Positions 17,349 to 30,712 of a DNA stretch of 64,000 bases are shown here, piece by piece. Each line of letters starts with the position of its first letter. The stretch's first letter is position 1. The notes under the pieces were generated by a model, which worked only from the letters and a program-made list of their open reading frames with translations, was not told the origin of the DNA and made no database searches. The translations under genes were made by a program, and so were the position numbers. The stretch comes from Candidatus Hydrogenedentota bacterium. GTDB lineage: Bacteria > Hydrogenedentota > Hydrogenedentia > Hydrogenedentales > SLHB01. Location: contig BTVY01000014.1 in NCBI GenBank assembly GCA_045863335.1, positions 1 through 64,000 of the forward strand. The letters run 5' to 3'.

Positions 17349-18740
17349 TCAGTCATCTTCGGCCAGCCCATACTTCTTCAAGCGATAGCGTAAGGAACGC
17401 GCGGTCAGCCCGAGCAGGTCCGCGGCGCGTTTTTGGGAGTAGCGGGTGCTTTGAAGCGCCTGCTTGATGAGGCTCGTTTCGATTTCCGCGACGTACTCTT
17501 CGAGGTCGAGTCCGCCCTGGGGCAACTCCTTGGCCGATTCTCCGGGCGTGGACACATGGTCGCGGACATTGGGCGGCAGATCGCTGATCTCGATTACGTC
17601 AGCCCGGCAGAGGGCCACCGCGCGTTCAAGCAGGTTGGTGAGTTCGCGCACGTTGCCGGGCCAGGGATACCCTAACAACAGGGACTCGACATCTTCCGAA
17701 ACGCGCATCTCGCCACGTTTCATCTTCTCCGCATGCACTTTTAGGAAGTGGCGGATCAGGAGGGGGATGTCGTCGGCCCGGTCGCGCAGGGGCGGCACGG
17801 TGATAGGAATCACGTTGAGCCGGTAATACAGGTCTTCCCGGAACTCGCCTTCATGGGCCATTTGCGCGAGGTCCCGGTTTGTCGCGGAGATGATGCGCAC
17901 ATCGACTTTTTTCCCCACGGTTCCGCCGACTGGGTGAATGACGCTATTGTCCAGCACGCGCAATAGCTTGACCTGGAGCGCCATGGGCATTTCACCGATT
18001 TCGTCGAGGAACAAGGTCCCACCGTCCGCAACGACGAAGAGTCCTTCCTTATCTTCGTAGGCGCCGGTAAAGGACCCTTTCTTATGGCCGAAGAGTTCGC
18101 TCTCGAGCAGGTTTTCGGGGAATCCACCGCAGTTGACCGCGACGAAGGGTTTGCTTGCGCGGCCGCTGAGTTGGTGAATGCCGCGGGCGACGAGTTCCTT
18201 GCCCGTGCCGCTCTCGCCGTGAATCGCCACCGTGCTCGGGAGGTCGGCCACGCGCCGGATCATGTCGCGCAATTCTTCGGTCGCCTTGCCCTTGCCGATG
18301 ATGTTATCAAGGTTTCCGCGCTTCGCCTGCTCTTTGCGCAGGGCGATGTTCTCGCGTTTGATCCGCGTCTGTTCGATAGCCCGCTGAATGAGGATGCGCA
18401 CTTCCTCGTTTTTGAAGGGTTTCATGATGTAGTCGGCCGCGCCGCGCTTCATGGCTTCGATGGCCGTCTCCACCGAACCGTACGCCGTCATCATGATGGA
18501 GGGGGTCGACGGGCTGTTCTCATTGAGCCACGAAAGCAGCTTCATGCCCGCGTCGCGATCGCTGCCCATGCGAAGGTCAGTCAGGACCACGTCGAAGCTC
18601 TCGTTCTCCAAAAGCTTTCGGGCGTCGTCCACATTGGAGGCTGTTGCGACGTCATACCCGTCTTTGGCGAGAACGATCTCGAGCAGCTCCCGCATGCCGG
18701 ACTCGTCGTCCACCACGAGAATGCGATTCTGGACAGCCAC
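17349..18740 (-). CDS. pilR: sigma54-dependent response regulator (PilR-like)
   Basis: Receiver domain, GESGTGKE, ELFGHKKGSFTGA, WPGNVREL, C-terminal HTH; pil context. Confidence 0.85.
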   Translation of the reverse strand: MAVQNRILVVDDESGMRELLEIVLAKDGYDVATASNVDDARKLLENESFDVVLTDLRMGSDRDAGMKLLSWLNENSPSTPSIMMTAYGSVETAIEAMKRGAADYIMKPFKNEEVRILIQRAIEQTRIKRENIALRKEQAKRGNLDNIIGKGKATEELRDMIRRVADLPSTVAIHGESGTGKELVARGIHQLSGRASKPFVAVNCGGFPENLLESELFGHKKGSFTGAYEDKEGLFVVADGGTLFLDEIGEMPMALQVKLLRVLDNSVIHPVGGTVGKKVDVRIISATNRDLAQMAHEGEFREDLYYRLNVIPITVPPLRDRADDIPLLIRHFLKVHAEKMKRGEMRVSEDVESLLLGYPWPGNVRELTNLLERAVALCRADVIEISDLPPNVRDHVSTPGESAKELPQGGLDLEEYVAEIETSLIKQALQSTRYSQKRAADLLGLTARSLRYRLKKYGLAEDD

Positions 18741-20375
18741 TTAGCCTTGTTCCTCCGTACCCGCGCGGGGCAACCGAACGCTCATCGTTGCGCCGCCCCC
18801 TTCGCGGGAAGCGGCACGGATGGTTCCGTCGTGAGCGGACACAATCCGCAGACAGATGGCCAACCCCATCCCAACCCCGGTATCCTTCGTAGTATAGAAA
18901 GGCTCGAAAATGCGCGCAACCTTGTCAGGCTCGATGCCCGGACCTTCGTCGTCAAATCGCACTTCCACCGACGAGGGGCCCAAGACGACGGCAATGAGCA
19001 AGCGGCCTTTCTCGTTCATGGCCTCGACGGCGTTCTTCGCAAGGTTCAGGAAGACTTGGCGGATCTGCGTCCGGTCGCCCGAGACAGGACACACTTCGTC
19101 CGGCATTTCGGTTTCAATGGAGAAACCAGGTGTTTCGCCGTACTTGCGATGGGTGAAGTCCGTGACTTCGTCGATGAGCCCGCGCACGTCGAACACGTCG
19201 CGCCGCATGCGGGGCTTGCGCGCAAAGTCGAGGAAATCGGAGACGATGGCGTTCAACTGATCGGACTCGCGCAGGGCGATGGCGAGCAGTTTTTGCGCCA
19301 CGTTCGGATGGTCCAGGCTGGTGGACAGTTCATCCACGGCGCCGCGAATCGCCGCGACCGGGTTTCGGATTTCGTGGGCCAGCCCTGCGGCCAGTTCACC
19401 CACGATGGAGAGCCGGTCCTGACGTTTCAATTCCTGTCGCATCTGTTCCAATTCGGTTAAGTCGCTGAAGGACGCGATAATGCCGGTCATGCGCCCGCGC
19501 CAGTCGTAGATTCGGCTCGTGCTGAGTCCGAGCAGCATGGTTCGTTTATCGTTCAGAAGCCCGGTGTATTCGTAGCGGGTAAAATCGCGTTCCGACCGGA
19601 GGGCCGTGAGCACTGGGCATTCCTCGCCCGAGGCGACACGCAGCACGTCCTGCACCGGTTGGCCGATGGCCTCGTCTTCGCTGAGATTCAAGATGCGTTC
19701 GGCGGCCTTGTTCACGACGGTGATCGTGCCCGAAAGATCCGTGATAAGAAATCCGTTGTTCATGTTGTCCAGGATTTCACGCTGGAATTGCTGGAGACGG
19801 TGCAACTGCTGATTCCAGTATCCGCTGATCGACGCCGTGAGGTAGTAGGCGAGCACCTGGAGCAGGTAGCCGTACCACAAAGTGTATCGATCCTGGTTGA
19901 ACCACTGCTCGGCTTCCGACACGCTCACCGAGGGCACGGTGCGCATGAGTACCAAGGCTCCCATGATCCCCGCGCACAACGTGGCGAAAACGAAACCCTC
20001 GATGAGCCCGAGCAGGATGCCGGCCTCCAGCACGATGAGGACAAACAGGAAGGTGTACACGCTGCCGAGGCCGCCGGTAAAGCTCACCGCCGCGGCGACA
20101 ACGCCGACATCGACGAGTACCTGGGCCCAGGTGAGCAGGCGGTTTACTTGCCGAACGTGCTTGGCAACGAAGAGGTAAGAGGCGCTACAGACCAGGCCGA
20201 AGAGATAGAAGGCGCTAAGATATGCAGCCTCGTTGGCGCCGAAGTCTCCAAAATAGAGGGTACCCGCCGCGATAACACAAATAACGGCGACTCGAACGAC
20301 ACTAATGACGACCTGCCACGGGGCAGCGGCGCTGTGGGACGGCTTAGCTGGGATCGACAAGTCGGGAGTGGTCAC
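18741..20375 (-). CDS. pilS: PAS-domain sensor histidine kinase (PilS-like)
   Basis: Multi-TM N-terminus, PAS, AHEIRNP H-box, N/G1/F/G2 boxes; adjacent to pilR. Confidence 0.82.
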   Translation of the reverse strand: MTTPDLSIPAKPSHSAAAPWQVVISVVRVAVICVIAAGTLYFGDFGANEAAYLSAFYLFGLVCSASYLFVAKHVRQVNRLLTWAQVLVDVGVVAAAVSFTGGLGSVYTFLFVLIVLEAGILLGLIEGFVFATLCAGIMGALVLMRTVPSVSVSEAEQWFNQDRYTLWYGYLLQVLAYYLTASISGYWNQQLHRLQQFQREILDNMNNGFLITDLSGTITVVNKAAERILNLSEDEAIGQPVQDVLRVASGEECPVLTALRSERDFTRYEYTGLLNDKRTMLLGLSTSRIYDWRGRMTGIIASFSDLTELEQMRQELKRQDRLSIVGELAAGLAHEIRNPVAAIRGAVDELSTSLDHPNVAQKLLAIALRESDQLNAIVSDFLDFARKPRMRRDVFDVRGLIDEVTDFTHRKYGETPGFSIETEMPDEVCPVSGDRTQIRQVFLNLAKNAVEAMNEKGRLLIAVVLGPSSVEVRFDDEGPGIEPDKVARIFEPFYTTKDTGVGMGLAICLRIVSAHDGTIRAASREGGGATMSVRLPRAGTEEQG

Positions 20376-21445
20376 AGCCCCTTTTCCATCAGGCGCCGCA
20401 GGCCTTCCGGATCGGCGCTGCGTTTGAATGCCATGTCGCTCGTAATGACGTTGCGGCGCATGAGCCGGTACAGGGACTGATTCATGGTCATCATCCCTTC
20501 CCCGGCGCCGATTTCGATCATGGACGGGATTTGTTGGAGCTTTTGTTCGCGAATCAGCGACCGAATGGCCGTGTTGGGCAGCATGACTTCCAGGGCGAGG
20601 GCGCGGCCCATCCCGTCGGCTCGAGGGATGAGCTGCTGCACGGCGATTCCCTCCAGCACGAAGGACAACTGGGTACGAATCTGATCCTGCTGGTTCGATG
20701 GGAACACGTCGACAATACGGTTGATGGACTGCAAGGCGTCGTTGGTATGCAGCGTGGCGAACGCGAGGTGCCCCGTCTCCGCCACAGTAAGCGCGGCCGC
20801 GATCGTTTCCGGGTCGCGCATTTCACCAATGAGAATGACGTCGGGGTCCTGGCGCAGAACGCGCTTGAGCGCAGCGCCGAAGGACTTGGTATCCGCGTTG
20901 ACCTCGCGCTGGTTAATGGTCGCCACATTATGATTGTGCAGATACTCGATGGGGTCTTCGATGGTGATGATATGGACCGGGCGTTCCCGGTTGATCTTGT
21001 CAATAATCGAAGCAAGCGTGGTGGACTTGCCGCTACCGGTCGGGCCGCAGATGAGTACCAGGCCGAGGGGCCGATAGGCGAAATCGGCCACAACGCGAGG
21101 AAGGCCCAGCTCCTCGAAGGAGCGAATTTCAAATGGAATGGAACGAAAGGCGGCCACCACGGAACCCCGATCGCGATACACGTTCAAACGGAAACGGCTC
21201 AACCCCTCGATTCCGAACGAGAGGTCGCATTCGCGATCGGTTTCGAACATGGCGATCTGCTCTTCGCTCATGACACTGTAGATAATCTCCTGCGTCTCGT
21301 CCGGCTTGAGCACGGGATACTCGTGCATGGCCTCGAGGTTGCCGTTCAGGCGAATGATCGGCGGGGAGCCGACGACGATATGAAGATCGCTGGCGCCTTT
21401 CTCAATCGTCTTGGTGAGCAGTTCTTTGATGCTGATTGTAATCAT
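20372..21445 (-). CDS. pilT: type IV pilus retraction ATPase PilT
   Basis: ASDLH, GPTGSGKST, TIEDPIE, LRQDPD, TLHTN, AIRSLIRE. Confidence 0.93.
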   Translation of the reverse strand: MITISIKELLTKTIEKGASDLHIVVGSPPIIRLNGNLEAMHEYPVLKPDETQEIIYSVMSEEQIAMFETDRECDLSFGIEGLSRFRLNVYRDRGSVVAAFRSIPFEIRSFEELGLPRVVADFAYRPLGLVLICGPTGSGKSTTLASIIDKINRERPVHIITIEDPIEYLHNHNVATINQREVNADTKSFGAALKRVLRQDPDVILIGEMRDPETIAAALTVAETGHLAFATLHTNDALQSINRIVDVFPSNQQDQIRTQLSFVLEGIAVQQLIPRADGMGRALALEVMLPNTAIRSLIREQKLQQIPSMIEIGAGEGMMTMNQSLYRLMRRNVITSDMAFKRSADPEGLRRLMEKGL

Positions 21446-21472: not shown

Positions 21473-23197
21473 CTAGTCCATCGCGGACACGCGCAAGACT
21501 TCCTCAATCGTGGTAACGCCTTCGGCCGCCTTCTCGAGGGCGTTCTGGCGCAGGGACCGCATGCCGCACTCCATGGCCACCCGCTTGATATCGCTGGCGG
21601 GTTGCCGCGTCATGATAAGGTCCTGAATCTCGGGATAGTTAGGCATCGCTTCAATCACAGCCAAGCGGCCGCGATAGCCCGTGTCTTTGCACTTGCCACA
21701 ACCGCGGCCGCGAACGAAGTTGGGGGGCGGCGCGCCTTCCGGGTGGCGGTACTGAATCCGTTCCAGCACATCCGGCGGCACGCGAATCGGTTCCTTGCAG
21801 TCCGGGCATACGCGGCGCAGCAGGCGCTGGGCGGCCGCCAAACCCACGGAAGACTGGACAAGGAACGGCTCCATACCCATGTCGATAAGGCGAGTGTACA
21901 CGCTCGACGCGTCATTGGTGTGAAGGGTGCTCAACACCAGGTGGCCGGTCAACGCGGCTTTGATGGCGATGTCCGCGGTCTCTTCGTCTCGAATCTCACC
22001 GACCATGATGATGTCGGGGTCCTGGCGGAGGATACTGCGCAATCCCGCGGCGAAGGTGAGTCCGATTTCGGATCGAGCCTGCACCTGATTGACGCCAAAA
22101 AGTTCGTATTCGACGGGATCTTCCACCGTGATAATGTTGGTGTCCGGGCCGTTCAGTTTGTGCAGCGCGCTGTAGAGCGTTGTCGTCTTTCCGCTACCGG
22201 TGGGACCGGTCAGCAGGATCATTCCGAAAGGAAGCGCGAGCGCTTCGCGGAACGCGTCCATGGGTTGCGCGGCAAACCCCAATCCGTCGAGGTCCAGTGT
22301 CAGGCTGCTCTTGTCCAGCACGCGCATCACGATCTTCTCGCCGTGGTAACAGGGGAGAATGGACACGCGGAAATCGATGTCGTGGCCTTTAAACCGCGTG
22401 CGGAACCGGCCGTCCTGGGGAAGCCGGTGCTCGGCAATGTCCAGGCCGGACATGATCTTGAATCGCGATATTAGTGCCGACTGCACGCTCTTCGGCGGGT
22501 TCTTGGTTTCTTCCAGCATCCCATCCACGCGATAGCGTACGCGAAGGACTTTCTCAAAGGGTTCGATGTGAATATCGCTCGCGCGGTTCTCCAGGGCCTT
22601 CAGCAAAATGAGGTTCGCGAGCCGAATCACCGGGGCGTCTTGCGCCTCGGCCTGCATGTGGGCGATGTCTTCGATGTGCTCTTCTTCATCGACGACTTCG
22701 ATGCCATCCTGCTTGTTCTCGCCGCCGACGAGTTCATCAAAAAGGCTGGCGCTGCTTTGCCCGCCGTAGTGCTTGCTGATGGCTTCGTTCAGCTCCGACT
22801 GCACCGCCACGACCGGCTCGATCTCGTAGCTGGTGAGCATGCGAAGATCGTCGAGGGCCATGATGTTCAGCGGATCGGCCATCGCCAGGGTGAGCACGTC
22901 TCCGGTGACGGAAACGGGAAGCATCTGGTACTGGCGCGCCAGGGATTCCGGGACTTCGTTCAGCACCTCTTGGGGGATGTTGTAGTTGGCCACGCGAATA
23001 TGGGGTATGCCGAGCTGTTCGCTCAAGGTAACGACGAGATCTTCCTCACCCAGATACCCCTTGGCAACGAGGACCGACGCCAGGCTTTGCCCAGACGACC
23101 GTTGGACGGCGATGCATTCCTGAAGCTGCTCCTGGGTGACCAGCTGCTGCTCCAGCAACACGTCTCCCAGCCGGCGTTTGGCAATTTTAGGCGGCAC
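21473..23197 (-). CDS. pilB: type IV pilus assembly ATPase PilB/GspE
   Basis: RLGDVL N-terminus, ASDIHIEP, GPTGSGKTT, LRQDPD, CPDC/CGKC Zn motif. Confidence 0.92.
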   Translation of the reverse strand: MPPKIAKRRLGDVLLEQQLVTQEQLQECIAVQRSSGQSLASVLVAKGYLGEEDLVVTLSEQLGIPHIRVANYNIPQEVLNEVPESLARQYQMLPVSVTGDVLTLAMADPLNIMALDDLRMLTSYEIEPVVAVQSELNEAISKHYGGQSSASLFDELVGGENKQDGIEVVDEEEHIEDIAHMQAEAQDAPVIRLANLILLKALENRASDIHIEPFEKVLRVRYRVDGMLEETKNPPKSVQSALISRFKIMSGLDIAEHRLPQDGRFRTRFKGHDIDFRVSILPCYHGEKIVMRVLDKSSLTLDLDGLGFAAQPMDAFREALALPFGMILLTGPTGSGKTTTLYSALHKLNGPDTNIITVEDPVEYELFGVNQVQARSEIGLTFAAGLRSILRQDPDIIMVGEIRDEETADIAIKAALTGHLVLSTLHTNDASSVYTRLIDMGMEPFLVQSSVGLAAAQRLLRRVCPDCKEPIRVPPDVLERIQYRHPEGAPPPNFVRGRGCGKCKDTGYRGRLAVIEAMPNYPEIQDLIMTRQPASDIKRVAMECGMRSLRQNALEKAAEGVTTIEEVLRVSAMD

Positions 23198-23214: not shown

Positions 23215-25542
23215 CTACGCGGCATCCTCGGCACCGAGGCTGTCCAAAACCTCGTTCGCCATCTCGCGCGTGATTTCCTGCTCGACCAGTTTGGCATAAG
23301 CGATGACTTTTCGCAACGCTCCCCGCATCCTGCGAACGTCGCTTGCGATCCGTGTCGCCACCAGGGACAAGACCTCCTCCGAAACAGCGACCCGGTGCGA
23401 TTCGGCATATCGCTTCAAGATGGCCAGACGCACGTCCATCTCGGGGGGGCGCAATTTCGTGACAATCCCCGAAGAGAATCGGGAGGTAAGCCCTTTCTGG
23501 AACTCAGTCAGCTTGTCCGGCGGCCGATCGCCGGCGATAACAACGATCCGGCCCTCGTGGACAAGCGCGTTGAAAACATGGAACAGCTCTTCTTGCGCTT
23601 CCTGCCTGCCTGCCAGGAATTGAATGTCGTCGATAAGCAACACGTCCCACCGGCAAAAACGATCGCGAAATTCCGAGAGTTCGTCGTGTTTCAGGGCCTT
23701 GGCAAAGGCGCCGGCGAAATGGCTGGTCGACACGTACGCCACGCGCAGGTCCGGATTCTTCGCGAGCACGGCATTCCCGACCGCGTTCAGAAGGTGTGTC
23801 TTGCCGAGACCCTCTTCGCCGCATACATAGAGGGGGTTGAAATCCCGCGCCAGGTTTTCGCCCAGGGCCTTTGCGGCCTTCAACGTGAATGTGTTTGCAG
23901 GGCCAACCAGGAACTCCTTAAAGGTGTACCCGCTCAACAGCCGGTCGCTGTCGATGGCCTCGCGGACGCGCTCGTCCGCCTCCATCCCCAACCCCGGGCT
24001 GTCCAGAGCGCCGGCGTCTGACAGTTGCCCTGCGGACAACTCATCGCCGCCTACCCCGGGAAAGACCTCGAGGTTGGCTATCTTGACGTTGGTGGGAGGG
24101 GAGTCCTCGGAGCGCAACCGTTCTTCTTGGATCGCGCGCAACGTAGCCTCGACGGTTTGTGTCGCCTGCATCATCGCCTCAGCGATTTCGGAAAGCCGGG
24201 ACTCCTGTTCCGCTACGGCGCGCCGGACGCTTTCGCCGATCAGTGCACTGAAATCCGGCAATGGTTGCGGTTGCGCAGGCTCAGCGCGAGCCTGCAGCGC
24301 CTCGCGAATTCCTTGGCCAAAATTGTGAAGCGGCGTCTCGATGCTGGCTTGGAGTAACCGGGTCAGTTCTTCTGGGTCGATTGCGGGCCCCTTGTCCTGC
24401 TTATCATTTTGCTGAGCCCTGAGAACCGACTCTACTCCAGATAGGACAGAGTCGCGCAATTCCTGGCCAATCTGTCCTGCAAACTGTTTGAGGTCGGGGA
24501 ATGCCGGCGCGGCTGCGGAACGTTCCGCCAGTTTCTGCTGCTCCGCGAAGAGTGGCGCAAGCGATTCTCGAAGGGCATCGCGAAGGCCCGCATGCAGTTC
24601 GGCCACAACCGCCTTGGAATCGATCCCCTCCGCTTGCGACCGAGATTCCGCTGCCAGCAACGGCTGGAGCGCTTCCTGCAGGACCGCGCGGACACTGTCC
24701 GAAACCTGCGCGCCGAGCGCTTCCGCCGAGACCGCCGGCGCGGGTCGAGGCGTAGCGGATTGCGATTTTGCCGCGTCACTCTGGCGGGGCGCTGGTACGT
24801 CGGGGCGCGGACGTGACGCGGCCGCGGGCTTGGGGGGCACCGCTGCCTCTTTAACCAACGCGTCCACCGCCGCATCCACCGCGGTTTGCGTCGAATCCTC
24901 GAAGGGCTTGGACTTCGCCGCAGGCTTCTTCTCCGATAGACCGAAGCTCCCAGCCGTTACTTCCTGAACGTCCTGTTGCTGCACGATGTGAAACACGCGT
25001 TTGGCGACGCTGTCAAAATGGTTCCAATCGCACAATATCGGTTTGATTTTGATGTCTGGGCACGTCTTGCGCACTTGTTCGAGGGCGTCCAGATCCAGCG
25101 GGTCCACCATCGCCAGCGTCAGGATGCGGCCCAGTTTGTCGATAGGCAGAAAGTTATATTTGAGGCACAGTTCCTTAGGAACGAGCTGGAACAGCTCCTC
25201 GCTGACGTCGTAGTCGACGAGGCTGATGTGCGGGATTTTACATTGCTTAACCAGGATCGACACGAGCGTGGCTTGCGTGATGAAATTCATCTCGACCAGG
25301 ACTTGCCCGAGGAATCTGCCGCTTTCCTGCTGCTTGGCGAGGGCTTCCTGCAACTGGCCGGCTGAGATCGCCCCTTCCCGCACCAGCATTTCCCCAAGTC
25401 GGCCGGTGGACGCAGGGCTATCGTTGGCACTGGAACCGGAACTCTGCGCGGGAACATTCGGGGACTTCGCCGCCCCACCGGACTGGGCAGGATTACCGCC
25501 CGCGGCGTCGCCGTCCGTTGTATCTTTGCGCCAACCTAGCAT
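23215..25542 (-). CDS. MshEN/T2SSE_N - helical linker - DnaA/Hda-type AAA+ fusion protein
   Basis: RLGEMLVREGAISAGQLQEALAKQ..FLGQVLV and LAMVDPLD; C-terminal YTFKEFLVG, NPLY.CGEEGLGKTHLL, LLIDDIQF, QEELFHVFN, SRF, DVRRMRGAL; ends before a domain IV. Confidence 0.85.
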   Translation of the reverse strand: MLGWRKDTTDGDAAGGNPAQSGGAAKSPNVPAQSSGSSANDSPASTGRLGEMLVREGAISAGQLQEALAKQQESGRFLGQVLVEMNFITQATLVSILVKQCKIPHISLVDYDVSEELFQLVPKELCLKYNFLPIDKLGRILTLAMVDPLDLDALEQVRKTCPDIKIKPILCDWNHFDSVAKRVFHIVQQQDVQEVTAGSFGLSEKKPAAKSKPFEDSTQTAVDAAVDALVKEAAVPPKPAAASRPRPDVPAPRQSDAAKSQSATPRPAPAVSAEALGAQVSDSVRAVLQEALQPLLAAESRSQAEGIDSKAVVAELHAGLRDALRESLAPLFAEQQKLAERSAAAPAFPDLKQFAGQIGQELRDSVLSGVESVLRAQQNDKQDKGPAIDPEELTRLLQASIETPLHNFGQGIREALQARAEPAQPQPLPDFSALIGESVRRAVAEQESRLSEIAEAMMQATQTVEATLRAIQEERLRSEDSPPTNVKIANLEVFPGVGGDELSAGQLSDAGALDSPGLGMEADERVREAIDSDRLLSGYTFKEFLVGPANTFTLKAAKALGENLARDFNPLYVCGEEGLGKTHLLNAVGNAVLAKNPDLRVAYVSTSHFAGAFAKALKHDELSEFRDRFCRWDVLLIDDIQFLAGRQEAQEELFHVFNALVHEGRIVVIAGDRPPDKLTEFQKGLTSRFSSGIVTKLRPPEMDVRLAILKRYAESHRVAVSEEVLSLVATRIASDVRRMRGALRKVIAYAKLVEQEITREMANEVLDSLGAEDAA

Positions 25543-25617: not shown

Positions 25618-25646
25618 ATTGTACCATCTGAATGCCACAACGTCAA
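25618..25646 (-). promoter_or_regulatory. sigma70 promoter of the mshEN-dnaA/pil operon
   Basis: Minus strand TTGACG (25646-25641), 17 bp spacer, extended TGG-TACAAT (25623-25618). Confidence 0.65.
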
Positions 25647-28245: not shown

Positions 28246-30558
28246 TCACAACACATCCATCATCGATTGCGCCGACAGTTCGCCTTCGTGCAATACGTCC
28301 CCGGCAGCGCGGCCTGATACGGCAGTGTACGGCGCGAGGGCGGTGTCCCACCCGTTTCCGCCGTTGAATACGTGGAGCGCGCGGTGTCCGTAGAGTGCGG
28401 CGCCCGTTGCCGCGTCGCCGATCGCGCGGATGCACGGCATGTAGGGACCAGCGACCCAGGCTGCATCCGAGTCCACGTCGAAACCATGTGCATCAATCGC
28501 GGTGGACCGGACGCCCTCATCCAGTGCGCCGGCAAAAAGGCACCAGACTCCGGCATCGCCGAGGCCGACGAGGTCCACGGGGATTCCATCCGGAATCACG
28601 CGCCGCGCGTGAATGAGGGCGGCCATGACGTCTTGAATGCGGTACGCCGTATCCGTCGGCAGGAAGGTGTCGGGATATGCCGTGGAGCGGCGTTTAGTGG
28701 CGTTCTCACCAATCCGGAACGGGTCCACCGTGACCACGACTTTGCCCGCGTCCATGAGTTGACGCAGGTAGTCTCCTGGCCCGCCGGAAGGCGCGTCCGC
28801 CAATGCGGCTTTGCCGTCGCCGTGAACAAGTACAACCGCGCCCGTGGGCTGATTGTCTGCGGGACGGAAGACCAGCGCCGGAATCGCGCTCGCCGCGTCG
28901 TGGGACAGGAGCACCCCTTCCACGCTGTACCCGTCGGCATTGTGCGTGCTGATGGTAGACGAGGTCACGGAGTCTTCACACGGAAGCTCGGCCGCGACGA
29001 TGTCCGCAAGCGCCGGTTTGGCGAATGAACGGAAGGCGAGATAGTCGCCGGAATTTGCCGGGAGTTGGGCCGCCCACTTCGCGCGCGTCGCGTCTACGAT
29101 CTCGGTCATCAACTGCTCGTACCCGGGGTATTCGGCGGGCGGTGTGCCGTCGGGAAAATTGCGGAGGTTCTCTTCGGGTTCCAGCGTGTACGCCGGTTCC
29201 GTGAAGTTTGCGTACTTCGCTTCCTCACCCAGGATCCATTTCCCGAAGAAGCGATACACCGCTTCGCGGCTGTCCTGGTTGTAGTTGTGGCTCGCATCGA
29301 TGTGGACATTCGCTACACGATCCGCGGCGTCGTAGAGGTCGTAGATGCCGCGGATTGCGGGATACTCGAAGTTTGGCGTTTCGCGCGTCCAGTCGCCGGT
29401 CGCGGAAACCATCATCATCGGACGCGGCGCGGCGAGCGCGCCCACTTCCATGTTGCTCGCGTTAAAGCGAATGATAGGCGCATTCTCGCACACGCATCCA
29501 CCCTGCATGGAATGGGAGATCATGTTGACCGGCGCGGAGACCTTGACGCGCTGGTCCACGGCGTTGAGCGCGAAGGTCTGCGTGCCGCCGCCGGAAGCGC
29601 CGGTGCAGTTCAGCTTGTTGGGATCGACGTAGGGAAGCGTTTCCATGAAATCGAGGGCGCGAATGCTGGACCACAACTGAACCGAAAACGGATGAAGCCC
29701 CCACAAGGCCAATTCTCCGCGGTCCGTGTCAGGCATGCCGAAATCGTGCTTCAATTGGCAACTGTCGTTGTAGCCGACCATATCATAGCTGAACACGACC
29801 ATTCCCATGCGCGCCATGGTGATGCAGCGGGCCGGCACCGAACCGCGTTCGCCGTCCTCCAGGCGGCCCTTTTCCCAATGGCCATGAGGGCAAATCACGG
29901 CGGGGAAGGGGCCGTCGCCCACGGGCCGGTAGAGGTTGCCGGTGACCAGTAAACCGGGGTGGGCTTCAAAGTACGCCTTCTCGACGATATAGTCGGGATG
30001 CTCGATCGCGTCGTAGACCTTGGCATTGAGCGGCGTGCGTTCCGGCAGCGGATAGAGCCCGCACGCGACCAGGAACCGGCGCCGCAACCCTTCCGCGTAG
30101 GACTCCCACGCGTCGAGGTCTTCAAAGGGGGTCATGAAAAACAGCGTGTTTGTGCCGCGATCGATCTCGCCACGCATATCGCCTGAGGGCTGGGGTTGGT
30201 CGAACACGCGCATGGCCTGCATGGCTTTCGCGGGATCGAAGTTCGGATCGCGTGACCCGGCAACCGCCGCCACTTTGTCGGGCTTTGTGAATGTTACTTT
30301 CACTGTGCCGGCCGTGAGCGGAACCGCGCCGATGGTGCGCCAGGTGAACTTGCCGTCGCTCTTCTCGTCGTTTGGAATCTCCACCTCGCCCGCCGCGGAC
30401 GAAGCCCAGCCCGCCCCGTCCTGCGCCCAGAACCAGATCGTGTACTCGCCATCGGCCGGAATCGTGATGCCCTTCTGCTGGGCATCAATTGCATCGGCCC
30501 AAACGAAACCGTCTCCCTGGATCGTGACTCCCAACATCGCAAGCAGCACGATGGCCAT
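28246..30558 (-). CDS. secreted alpha/beta hydrolase, acetylxylan esterase-like, with a second degenerate hydrolase domain
   Basis: CPHGHW, YDMVGY, nucleophile elbow TGASGGGTQT, GGCVCEN, HNYN. Confidence 0.8.
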   Translation of the reverse strand: MAIVLLAMLGVTIQGDGFVWADAIDAQQKGITIPADGEYTIWFWAQDGAGWASSAAGEVEIPNDEKSDGKFTWRTIGAVPLTAGTVKVTFTKPDKVAAVAGSRDPNFDPAKAMQAMRVFDQPQPSGDMRGEIDRGTNTLFFMTPFEDLDAWESYAEGLRRRFLVACGLYPLPERTPLNAKVYDAIEHPDYIVEKAYFEAHPGLLVTGNLYRPVGDGPFPAVICPHGHWEKGRLEDGERGSVPARCITMARMGMVVFSYDMVGYNDSCQLKHDFGMPDTDRGELALWGLHPFSVQLWSSIRALDFMETLPYVDPNKLNCTGASGGGTQTFALNAVDQRVKVSAPVNMISHSMQGGCVCENAPIIRFNASNMEVGALAAPRPMMMVSATGDWTRETPNFEYPAIRGIYDLYDAADRVANVHIDASHNYNQDSREAVYRFFGKWILGEEAKYANFTEPAYTLEPEENLRNFPDGTPPAEYPGYEQLMTEIVDATRAKWAAQLPANSGDYLAFRSFAKPALADIVAAELPCEDSVTSSTISTHNADGYSVEGVLLSHDAASAIPALVFRPADNQPTGAVVLVHGDGKAALADAPSGGPGDYLRQLMDAGKVVVTVDPFRIGENATKRRSTAYPDTFLPTDTAYRIQDVMAALIHARRVIPDGIPVDLVGLGDAGVWCLFAGALDEGVRSTAIDAHGFDVDSDAAWVAGPYMPCIRAIGDAATGAALYGHRALHVFNGGNGWDTALAPYTAVSGRAAGDVLHEGELSAQSMMDVL

Positions 30559-30712
30559 CGTCGCATCTCCTGTCTGGTAAATGGAGCGGGAAGCGGTATT
30601 CCCGCGTCGCGGCAATTGGTTCAGCCTAGCGTATTGCTGGCCGGGACCGCAACGCATGAATGAATTGCGTCACAAGACCGCGGGAAAGGCCGGAAGCATG
30701 CCCAACCAGGTT

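Follow-up and report, generated by a model that had tools for sequence, protein, structure and literature searches.

The AAA+ domain III of DnaA is usually seen as a hallmark of replication initiation and of its direct regulators. Hda is a DnaA-related AAA+ protein that has no DNA-binding domain, acts on DnaA through its AAA+ arginine finger, which could work in trans, and carries an N-terminal QL[SP]LPL-like motif for binding the beta clamp. MshEN is a receptor domain for cyclic di-GMP (c-di-GMP) that precedes the T2SSE ATPase in V. cholerae MshE (5HTL), M. xanthus PilB (3JC8) and T. thermophilus PilF (6F8L). Its ligand site is made of two 24-residue motifs with a five-residue join, in which the guanine is held by the backbone amides of the third-position glycine and of the next residue, while the first arginine of the motif stacks on the base (PMC5013675). 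The partners of MshEN named in the main text of the same paper are REC, HD-GYP, CheA, CheX, cyclase and Ser/Thr kinase domains, with neither DnaA nor another AAA+ domain among them. In the FimX-PilZ-PilB system of Xanthomonas, c-di-GMP is sensed by a protein that is distinct from the extension ATPase PilB and acts on it (PMC12943098); the domains of this system are unrelated (a degenerate GGDEF-EAL protein and a PilZ adaptor), and no AAA+ domain is among them.

A stretch of 64,000 nucleotides from a Candidatus Hydrogenedentota bacterium (assembly GCA_045863335.1, contig BTVY01000014.1, positions 1 to 64,000; hereafter the window) encodes a protein of 775 amino acids (aa), for which X is used here as shorthand (23215..25542, minus strand). 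In X, a DnaA-type AAA+ module takes the place that the T2SSE ATPase has in MshE, PilB and PilF. X is a conserved, unstudied, pilus-linked protein and not an initiator. No description of the MshEN-DnaA domain III architecture was found in the literature, in agreement with the first-pass annotation, which knew of no characterised protein of this kind; the supplement of PMC5013675 (Table 4, Fig. 3b) may list such a fusion.

Domain searches used Pfam at E ≤ 0.01 and NCBIfam with its curated bit cut-offs, and both agree with the intact 775-aa fusion reading frame that had been proposed. From its N-terminus, X consists of a G/A/S-rich low-complexity tail (aa 1-47, 25402..25542) that is predicted to be disordered, with a predicted local distance difference test score (pLDDT) of 33-37; the MshEN_N four-helix region with the c-di-GMP motifs (aa 48-100, 25243..25401; NF053729); the MshEN_C subdomain with the fold of the PilB/GspE N-domain (aa 101-185, 24988..25242; Pfam and the fold match to 5htl); a variable linker (aa 186-530, 23953..24987; from the model and the relatives); and a whole DnaA domain III including the initiator-specific motif region and the lid (aa 531-775, 23218..23952; Pfam, NCBIfam, alignments and Foldseek), all on the minus strand. 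The start codon is supported by the conservation of the first residues (ML..RK) in relatives. An AlphaFold2 model, built on 82 sequences that also served to assess residue invariance, has a pLDDT of ~95 for aa 48-185 and 525-770 and predicts disorder for residues 1-46, 189-268 (except for a short helix at 219-233) and 477-520. The linker, modelled with middling confidence as five long helices (273-301, 309-341, 351-381, 390-420 and 431-478), has no Pfam match at the above threshold; its length ranges from 108 to 484 aa across relatives and is nearly nil in the short forms described below.

A word-indexed search for relatives of similar length gave 241 proteins. All of the 120 that were listed carry both PF05157 and PF00308, so that at least 120 of the 241 share the architecture; the named ones are mostly Hydrogenedentes, and their sources frequently call them 'chromosomal replication initiator protein DnaA'. 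X and the 120 listed relatives were aligned (n = 121, to which the counts out of 121 below refer), and ten residues of the AAA+ module (G578, G580, K581, H583, D638, D639, S687, R688, D735 and R737) are kept in 121/121. Judged by this conservation of the ATPase motifs, the fusion is far beyond chance. The reading frame is unbroken in the window and in relatives, and contigs from independent sequencing runs cover the gene without indels. A search for shorter relatives gave 21 matches, mostly truncated N-terminal pieces, with no sign of a split gene; two carry the source label 'partial', and many come from contigs only 1-4 kb long.

The C-terminal module matches PF00308 (Bac_DnaA) at aa 538-695 with an E-value of 1.8e-53. 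The full-length DnaA model TIGR00362 aligns to aa 447-770 with 285.3 bits, under its cut-off of 343.9; the match covers positions 52-339 of 437 and thus leaves the domain IV part of the model unmatched. X has no Pfam match to Bac_DnaA_C (PF08299) or DnaA_N (PF11638), which bears out the earlier statement that domains I and IV are absent, nor one to T2SSE (PF00437), a family that the adjoining PilB matches with 459.6 bits. The module has Walker A GEEGLGKT (G575-T582), Walker B in LLIDD (635-639; D638 and D639), sensor I D672 in GDRPP (671-675), the arginine finger R688 in SRF (687-689) and sensor II R737 in DVRR (735-738), all as first annotated and now seen in gap-free DnaA alignments; at sensor I, 106 of the 121 aligned sequences have D and 13 have N. 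X is 41% identical to the DnaA of its own genome over 246 residues without a gap, up to residue 362 of 461, where domain III gives way to domain IV, and 40% identical, again gap-free, to B. subtilis DnaA (whose numbering is that of X minus 424). By sequence, its closest solved relatives are the DnaA proteins of B. subtilis, T. maritima and A. aeolicus (8BV3/8BTG, 2Z4R and 2HCB/3R8F; E 3e-59 to 7e-35), and Foldseek matched the model to B. subtilis DnaA domain III (8bv3_A) with a TMt of 0.93 and a root-mean-square deviation of 1.8 Å. The match extends over the whole of domain III. Unlike DnaA, X lacks domains I and IV, and presumably with them DnaA-box binding, scores under the equivalog cut-off, falls in a separate clade and is found in pilus operons.

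The host genome (99.4% complete) contains three Bac_DnaA matches: a 461-aa DnaA on contig C19, X, and a weak match on contig C69. Since the separate DnaA on C19 carries the only Bac_DnaA_C match of the genome, X is not the initiator. The earlier suggestion that a canonical dnaA-dnaN locus should exist elsewhere held for dnaA (C19:101-1486, at the very start of the contig), but dnaN lies apart on another contig (C5:95304-95654); the ORF (open reading frame) that follows dnaA has weak DUF matches only and is not dnaN, and no dnaA-dnaN pair was seen in the assembly.

The N-terminal region of X matches PF05157 (MshEN) at aa 102-183 (E 4.1e-15; 56 bits, cut-off 23.1) and NF053729, the MshE-type c-di-GMP motif domain, at aa 48-100 (63.8 bits, cut-off 38). 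Residues 46-190 resemble MshE, M. xanthus PilB and T. thermophilus PilF with E-values of 4e-17 to 4e-25, and Foldseek matched the N-domain model to MshE with bound c-di-GMP (5htl_B) with a TMt of 0.71; curated cut-offs passed and fold matched (pLDDT ~95) place this region among the MshEN receptor domains. All motifs quoted in the first-pass annotation were found at their places, including RLGEMLVREGAISAGQLQEALAKQ (48-71), FLGQVLVEMNFI (77-88) and LAMVDPLD (143-150). Its description of the MshEN motif as near-canonical stands for motif I (48-71, RLG...Q), in which every conserved position is matched and which is followed by a spacer of five residues as in the known receptors, but less so for motif II (77-100, FLG...Q). 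This motif opens with F instead of R, a feature of the whole family (119/121), and has N at the turn glycine of position 10 in this copy, where 88 of the 121 have G; G79, L93, L97 and Q100 are retained. The aromatic residue could stand in for the stacking arginine.

The motifs were compared with those of the cognate PilB in 21 operons, comprising the window and the 20 synteny loci described below. The guanine-binding glycines are present in most copies of X (G50 in 18/21, G79 in 19/21), whereas those of PilB are eroded: G11 is found in 10 (P in 8), G40 in none (A in 10, P in 9) and R38 in none. By this comparison, X appears to hold a better-preserved c-di-GMP receptor than its cognate PilB. 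The host genome has 13 GGDEF and 17 MshEN matches.

The MshEN_C half is the most conserved portion of X, which suggests, as far as conservation can tell, a conserved partner surface. Among the 82 sequences, C101 and C126 never vary, while at least 90% have C161 and C171; H105, W173 and H175 are conserved as well. The four cysteines are missing from PilB and from the candidate division WOR-3 form described below, and together with the histidines and the tryptophan they may form a metal or redox site. The part of GspE that is homologous to MshEN_C binds the PilM-like domain of GspL. A complex prediction for X aa 46-190 with the canonical PilM of the genome (contig C50, 412 aa), both given as alignments, scored 0.00 against a mark of 0.32 and speaks neither for nor against contact between the two. 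The canonical PilM cluster on C50 (L123) consists of pilM, two small genes (one PilO) and an AMIN-domain secretin, and a second PilM cluster on contig C11 (L122:11426-18341) encodes a 746-aa PilM-like protein and a TPR-bearing secretin; several further T2SSE ATPases are encoded in the genome.

A second protein with an X-type N-domain occurs in many Hydrogenedentota genomes. In the three that were inspected (L164:7794-9185, minus strand; L165:8402-9625, plus strand; L166:8603-10174, plus strand), the fusion partner of this domain is a cNMP-binding domain in two cases and a GGDEF cyclase in the third. The three share with X the KxCKIPH, PIDKLG and KPILC signature and the four cysteines, and the X-type N-domain is thus a module that is reused in other fusions. 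The cNMP-fused proteins have SLP, not RLG, in motif I, and the gene of the GGDEF-fused protein adjoins one for a GAF-sigma54 activator.

To survey the phylum, X residues 1-190 were searched against 135 Hydrogenedentota genomes at E ≤ 1e-35, a threshold that splits X orthologues from PilB N-domains as judged on the 20 synteny loci. The X-type N-domain is present in 123 of the 135 genomes, and in 84 of the 86 with a completeness of 90% or more and a contamination of 5% or less. Gene order was compared in 20 loci of 20 kb that were chosen for family spread, with the two deepest families included. In 20/20 of these loci, all selected through the presence of X and from kin genomes that are not independent, the genes pilB, pilT and pilS come directly after X in the same orientation; pilR continues this co-oriented series in 18 loci, has the reverse orientation in one and was not seen in another. 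A separate search gave eight further long-form loci, with pilB directly downstream of X in 8/8. The upstream gene, coding for a PpiC/SurA-like protein, is kept in only one close relative among the 20 loci, and X is therefore taken to head the conserved block.

Five of the 12 genomes without a match to X were inspected. Two of them (G021 and G037, both 96% complete) keep pilB-pilT-pilS-pilR with nothing X-like within 5-8 kb upstream, and the other three (G007, G016 and G045) have neither X nor the orthologous PilB, their best PilB match being 42-45% identical. Since the operon can be kept without X, while three genomes lack both X and this PilB, X behaves like an accessory whose occurrence is tied to this one type of PilB.

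In the window, the block continues on the minus strand with pilB (21473..23197), coding for a 574-aa type IVa pilus extension ATPase (TIGR02538, 662.9 bits, cut-off 675.65); pilT (20372..21445), for a 357-aa retraction ATPase (TIGR01420, 467.5 bits, cut-off 319.1); a gene for a pilS-like histidine kinase of 544 aa (18741..20375) with PAS, HisKA and HATPase_c domains and a weak, sub-cut-off match to 6TM_PilS; and one for a pilR-like sigma-54 activator of 463 aa (17349..18740) with REC, Sigma54_activat and HTH_8. The spacing of 17 nucleotides between the stop codon of X and the GTG of pilB, first noted from the sequence, was confirmed; it contains GGAG, and no terminator-like site was found between the two genes on the coding strand. 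The 'consensus sigma70 promoter' also reported there is a near-consensus site (25618..25646, minus strand; TTGACG-17 nt-TACAAT with an upstream TG, extended -10) that lies ~76 nucleotides before the ATG of X and matches 10 of the 12 consensus positions. Such sites occur twice in the 10.5-kb region, against 2.8 expected from shuffled sequences; as this count is not above chance, the site is plausible as the promoter of X by position only. RNA-library contigs from two studies cover 0.89 (X1) and 0.22 (X2) of the sampled words of the locus, and one contig per study bridges the junction of X and pilB; runs X4 and X5 gave nothing further of use. These are a weak hint, given that DNA is possibly present in the libraries and that contigs cannot prove transcription or a single transcript. 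Further upstream in the window, an 803-aa ORF (28246-30657, minus strand) has only weak sub-threshold esterase-like matches (AXE1, 19.7 bits).

Outside the long form, an exhaustive HMMER search gave 31,927 matches at E ≤ 1e-3, in line with a DnaA domain, and 34 proteins were hand-picked from the top 150 to determine their Pfam architectures. Those in which MshEN and DnaA domain III are joined as a short form measure 398-494 aa. One short-form cluster includes a member named candidate division WOR-3, and on a WOR-3 contig the genes are ordered pilC, a pilin gene, the prepilin peptidase gene (pilD), a TPR gene, a gene for a small MshEN protein, a second TPR gene, the short form (411 aa) and, directly downstream of it, a pilM/pilN fusion. 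Another lineage here presents a second pilus cluster with a different organisation. The small MshEN protein is a stand-alone domain of 167 aa, encoded two genes before the short form (L041:2964-3467, plus strand) and flanked by the TPR genes. Metagenomes also contain DnaA domain III in other architectures, namely tandem modules without MshEN (P0210, P0221, P0224, P0226, P0231 and others), MshEN with two modules (up to 1,990 aa; P0147, P0150, P0215, P0248), TPR-linked modules (P0260) and modules with a zinc ribbon (P0253).

The Hydrogenedentota-type operon of X and pilB was also found on contigs labelled Nitrospirales/Nitrospiraceae (5), Bathyarchaeia (1), FCB group (1) and uncultured bacterium (1). 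PilB of these loci is 65-77% identical to that of the window; the Nitrospirales, Bathyarchaeia and FCB labels or bins (L047, L078, L081, L091, L120, L059 and L111) are probably wrong, and these groups were not counted as extra phyla for X.

A tree of 99 DnaA domain III modules was built with an IQ-TREE quick search (LG+G4), with SH-aLRT as the only branch support. It comprised X; 16 long forms taken at random from 181; 12 short forms and the WOR-3 copy; both modules of six two-module MshEN proteins and of 10 of the 22 tandem proteins; 21 single-module proteins without a detected MshEN; and, as canonical DnaA, the genome's own protein and 14 AAA+ stretches from other phyla that were labelled through partial coverage. 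The outgroup was the DnaA-related paralogue on C69, and rooting on such a long branch is unsafe, although the split described next has branch support. One clade of 46 rows (SH-aLRT 96) takes in every long-form (17) and short-form (13) MshEN-linked module, and 14 of the 15 rows labelled canonical DnaA, the genome's own among them, fall in a separate group (support 93). The remaining one (L048, Sumerlaeota) sits inside the X-type clade beside a TPR-DnaA-III protein, and its label was rejected as wrong. With 41% identity to its own DnaA, 40% to that of B. subtilis and a separate clade, the module of X is not a recent local copy of dnaA; judged from these identities and the tree, it is an old paralogue of DnaA. 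The C69 paralogue itself is a 927-aa open frame that runs past its locus (L003:1462-3447, plus strand), with a weak N-terminal Bac_DnaA match (E 4.8e-14), Walker A GDEGCGKTH and LLVDQ in the Walker B region; beyond this come over 600 aa that are coiled-coil-like, and the neighbouring gene, on the opposite strand, encodes a PP2C phosphatase.

With a confidence a little above even, we favour the view that X is an accessory or regulator of the type IV pilus motor that responds to c-di-GMP and oligomerises in an ATP-dependent way. X would have been assembled from two borrowed modules, an MshEN domain like the head of PilB and a DnaA-type AAA+ module, and would be made from the same operon as PilB, PilT, PilS and PilR. 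Judging by its motifs, the MshEN domain probably still binds c-di-GMP, and its conserved MshEN_C half probably docks on the pilus motor or platform. By analogy with DnaA, the AAA+ module may bind ATP, assemble head to tail via the arginine finger and hydrolyse ATP, and the ATP-timed oligomer could serve as a switch or a scaffold. In this way X might supply the c-di-GMP input that its cognate PilB has largely lost, and might tune extension versus retraction, or the recruitment of a motor. We infer the binding of c-di-GMP, the oligomerisation, the docking and the effect on pili from the architecture and its conservation. FimX-PilZ-PilB offers a functional analogy only.

Several observations weigh against this view. 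The F and N of motif II fall outside the relaxed pattern given in PMC5013675, and the WOR-3 and other short forms have degenerate motifs, so that c-di-GMP is not a universal input of the family. The NCBIfam c-di-GMP motif model still recognises PilB of the window (52.7 bits, cut-off 38); the site of this PilB is therefore graded as degenerate rather than dead, and an 'outsourcing' of c-di-GMP sensing to X is unproven. Synteny speaks for linkage, not for mechanism, and was counted in related genomes at loci picked for X. The base-capturing residues of DnaA are retained (R626 and E652 invariant, R646 basic), for which a protein-only scaffold has no obvious need, and there is no precedent for an initiator-type, spiral-forming AAA+ protein that acts on a pilus motor.

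Other explanations were weighed against the same evidence. That X is an artefact or a decaying gene (a mis-assembly, a frameshift fusion or a pseudogenised copy of dnaA), one of the outcomes by which the first-pass annotation could have been refuted, has only the oddity of the architecture and the frequent labelling of relatives as DnaA in its favour; its probability is practically nil, as the frame is intact, more than 100 relatives share both domains, the catalytic residues are invariant, contigs of independent runs are free of indels and both domains are modelled with a pLDDT of ~95. The same annotation had proposed two functions, either an Hda-like modulator of replication initiation or a DnaA fold repurposed as a pilus scaffold or regulator. 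In the former case, X would join or cap DnaA-ATP oligomers at the origin via its arginine finger and tie initiation to c-di-GMP or surface attachment, and its place in a pilus operon would reflect co-regulation only. Its AAA+ module, gap-free and 41% identical to the genome's DnaA with arginine finger and sensor II intact, would be suited to such a role, and none of the genome's proteins reaches the cut-off of the Hda model (TIGR03420), so that no dedicated Hda was found. However, X itself scores 105.4 and 108.8 bits with this model, far under the cut-off of 194.8, and is much less similar by sequence to Hda structures (5X06, 3BOS; E ~1e-8) than to DnaA (3e-59); it is three times longer than Hda and pilus-linked, and a loose, crude pattern search found no beta-clamp-binding-like motif. 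X also has no domain I or domain IV for recruitment to the origin, its module belongs to an old separate clade and is no nearer to the genome's own DnaA than to that of B. subtilis, pilus linkage recurs in two cluster types (Hydrogenedentota and WOR-3), and two 96%-complete genomes do without X. We regard this role as improbable, and it is the second proposal, a repurposed DnaA fold at the pilus, that is favoured by the synteny in 20/20 loci and the recurrence in WOR-3.

Many bacteria import DNA by way of type IV pili, and X might, tethered by MshEN at the pilus base, use its DnaA domain III, with ATP-dependent binding of single strands retained, to receive or protect incoming DNA during transformation. 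A ComEC protein is encoded in the genome (contig C10), and the initiator-specific motif region of X aligns gap-free to DnaA. In B. subtilis DnaA, Arg202 and Glu228 capture a base, Lys222 binds the phosphate, and Ile190 and Ile193, which are described as not universally conserved, separate the bases (PMC10721633). The equivalents of Arg202 and Glu228, R626 and E652, are invariant in 82/82 sequences, and that of Lys222, R646, is R, K or H in 118/121; judged from these residues, X may bind single-stranded DNA. Against this, Ile190 and Ile193 are replaced by A614 and L617 in columns without a majority residue in the family consensus, and R626 and E652 may persist for structural reasons; in place of Asn187, X has G611, and the family consensus has R. 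The conserved block contains no competence gene, DNA uptake is pure inference, and we consider it about as improbable as a role in replication. A broader possibility, speculative and also unlikely, is that the DnaA domain III of X is an ATP-dependent, spiral-forming clamp for nucleic acid or protein at the pilus base, serving either the hand-over of single-stranded DNA from pilus to cell or a physical link between pilus activity, c-di-GMP and the state of the origin. If true, this would be a direct mechanical or signalling bridge from the pilus motor to chromosome biology, with an initiator fold acting outside replication.

As an accessory of the pilus motor, X represents a defined candidate route by which c-di-GMP may reach a PilB with a decayed receptor site. 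The family also carries a warning for annotation, in that the name 'chromosomal replication initiator protein DnaA' is attached to hundreds of database entries for proteins other than initiators, and it reveals a wider, unstudied set of proteins with DnaA domain III, including tandem, TPR-linked and coiled-coil-linked forms and giants of near 2,000 aa. A catalytically intact DnaA domain III is conserved in pilus operons across an uncultured phylum, with a short form in at least one other phylum, and this therefore suggests that the ATP-driven assembly module of the replication initiator has been reused for a different machine.

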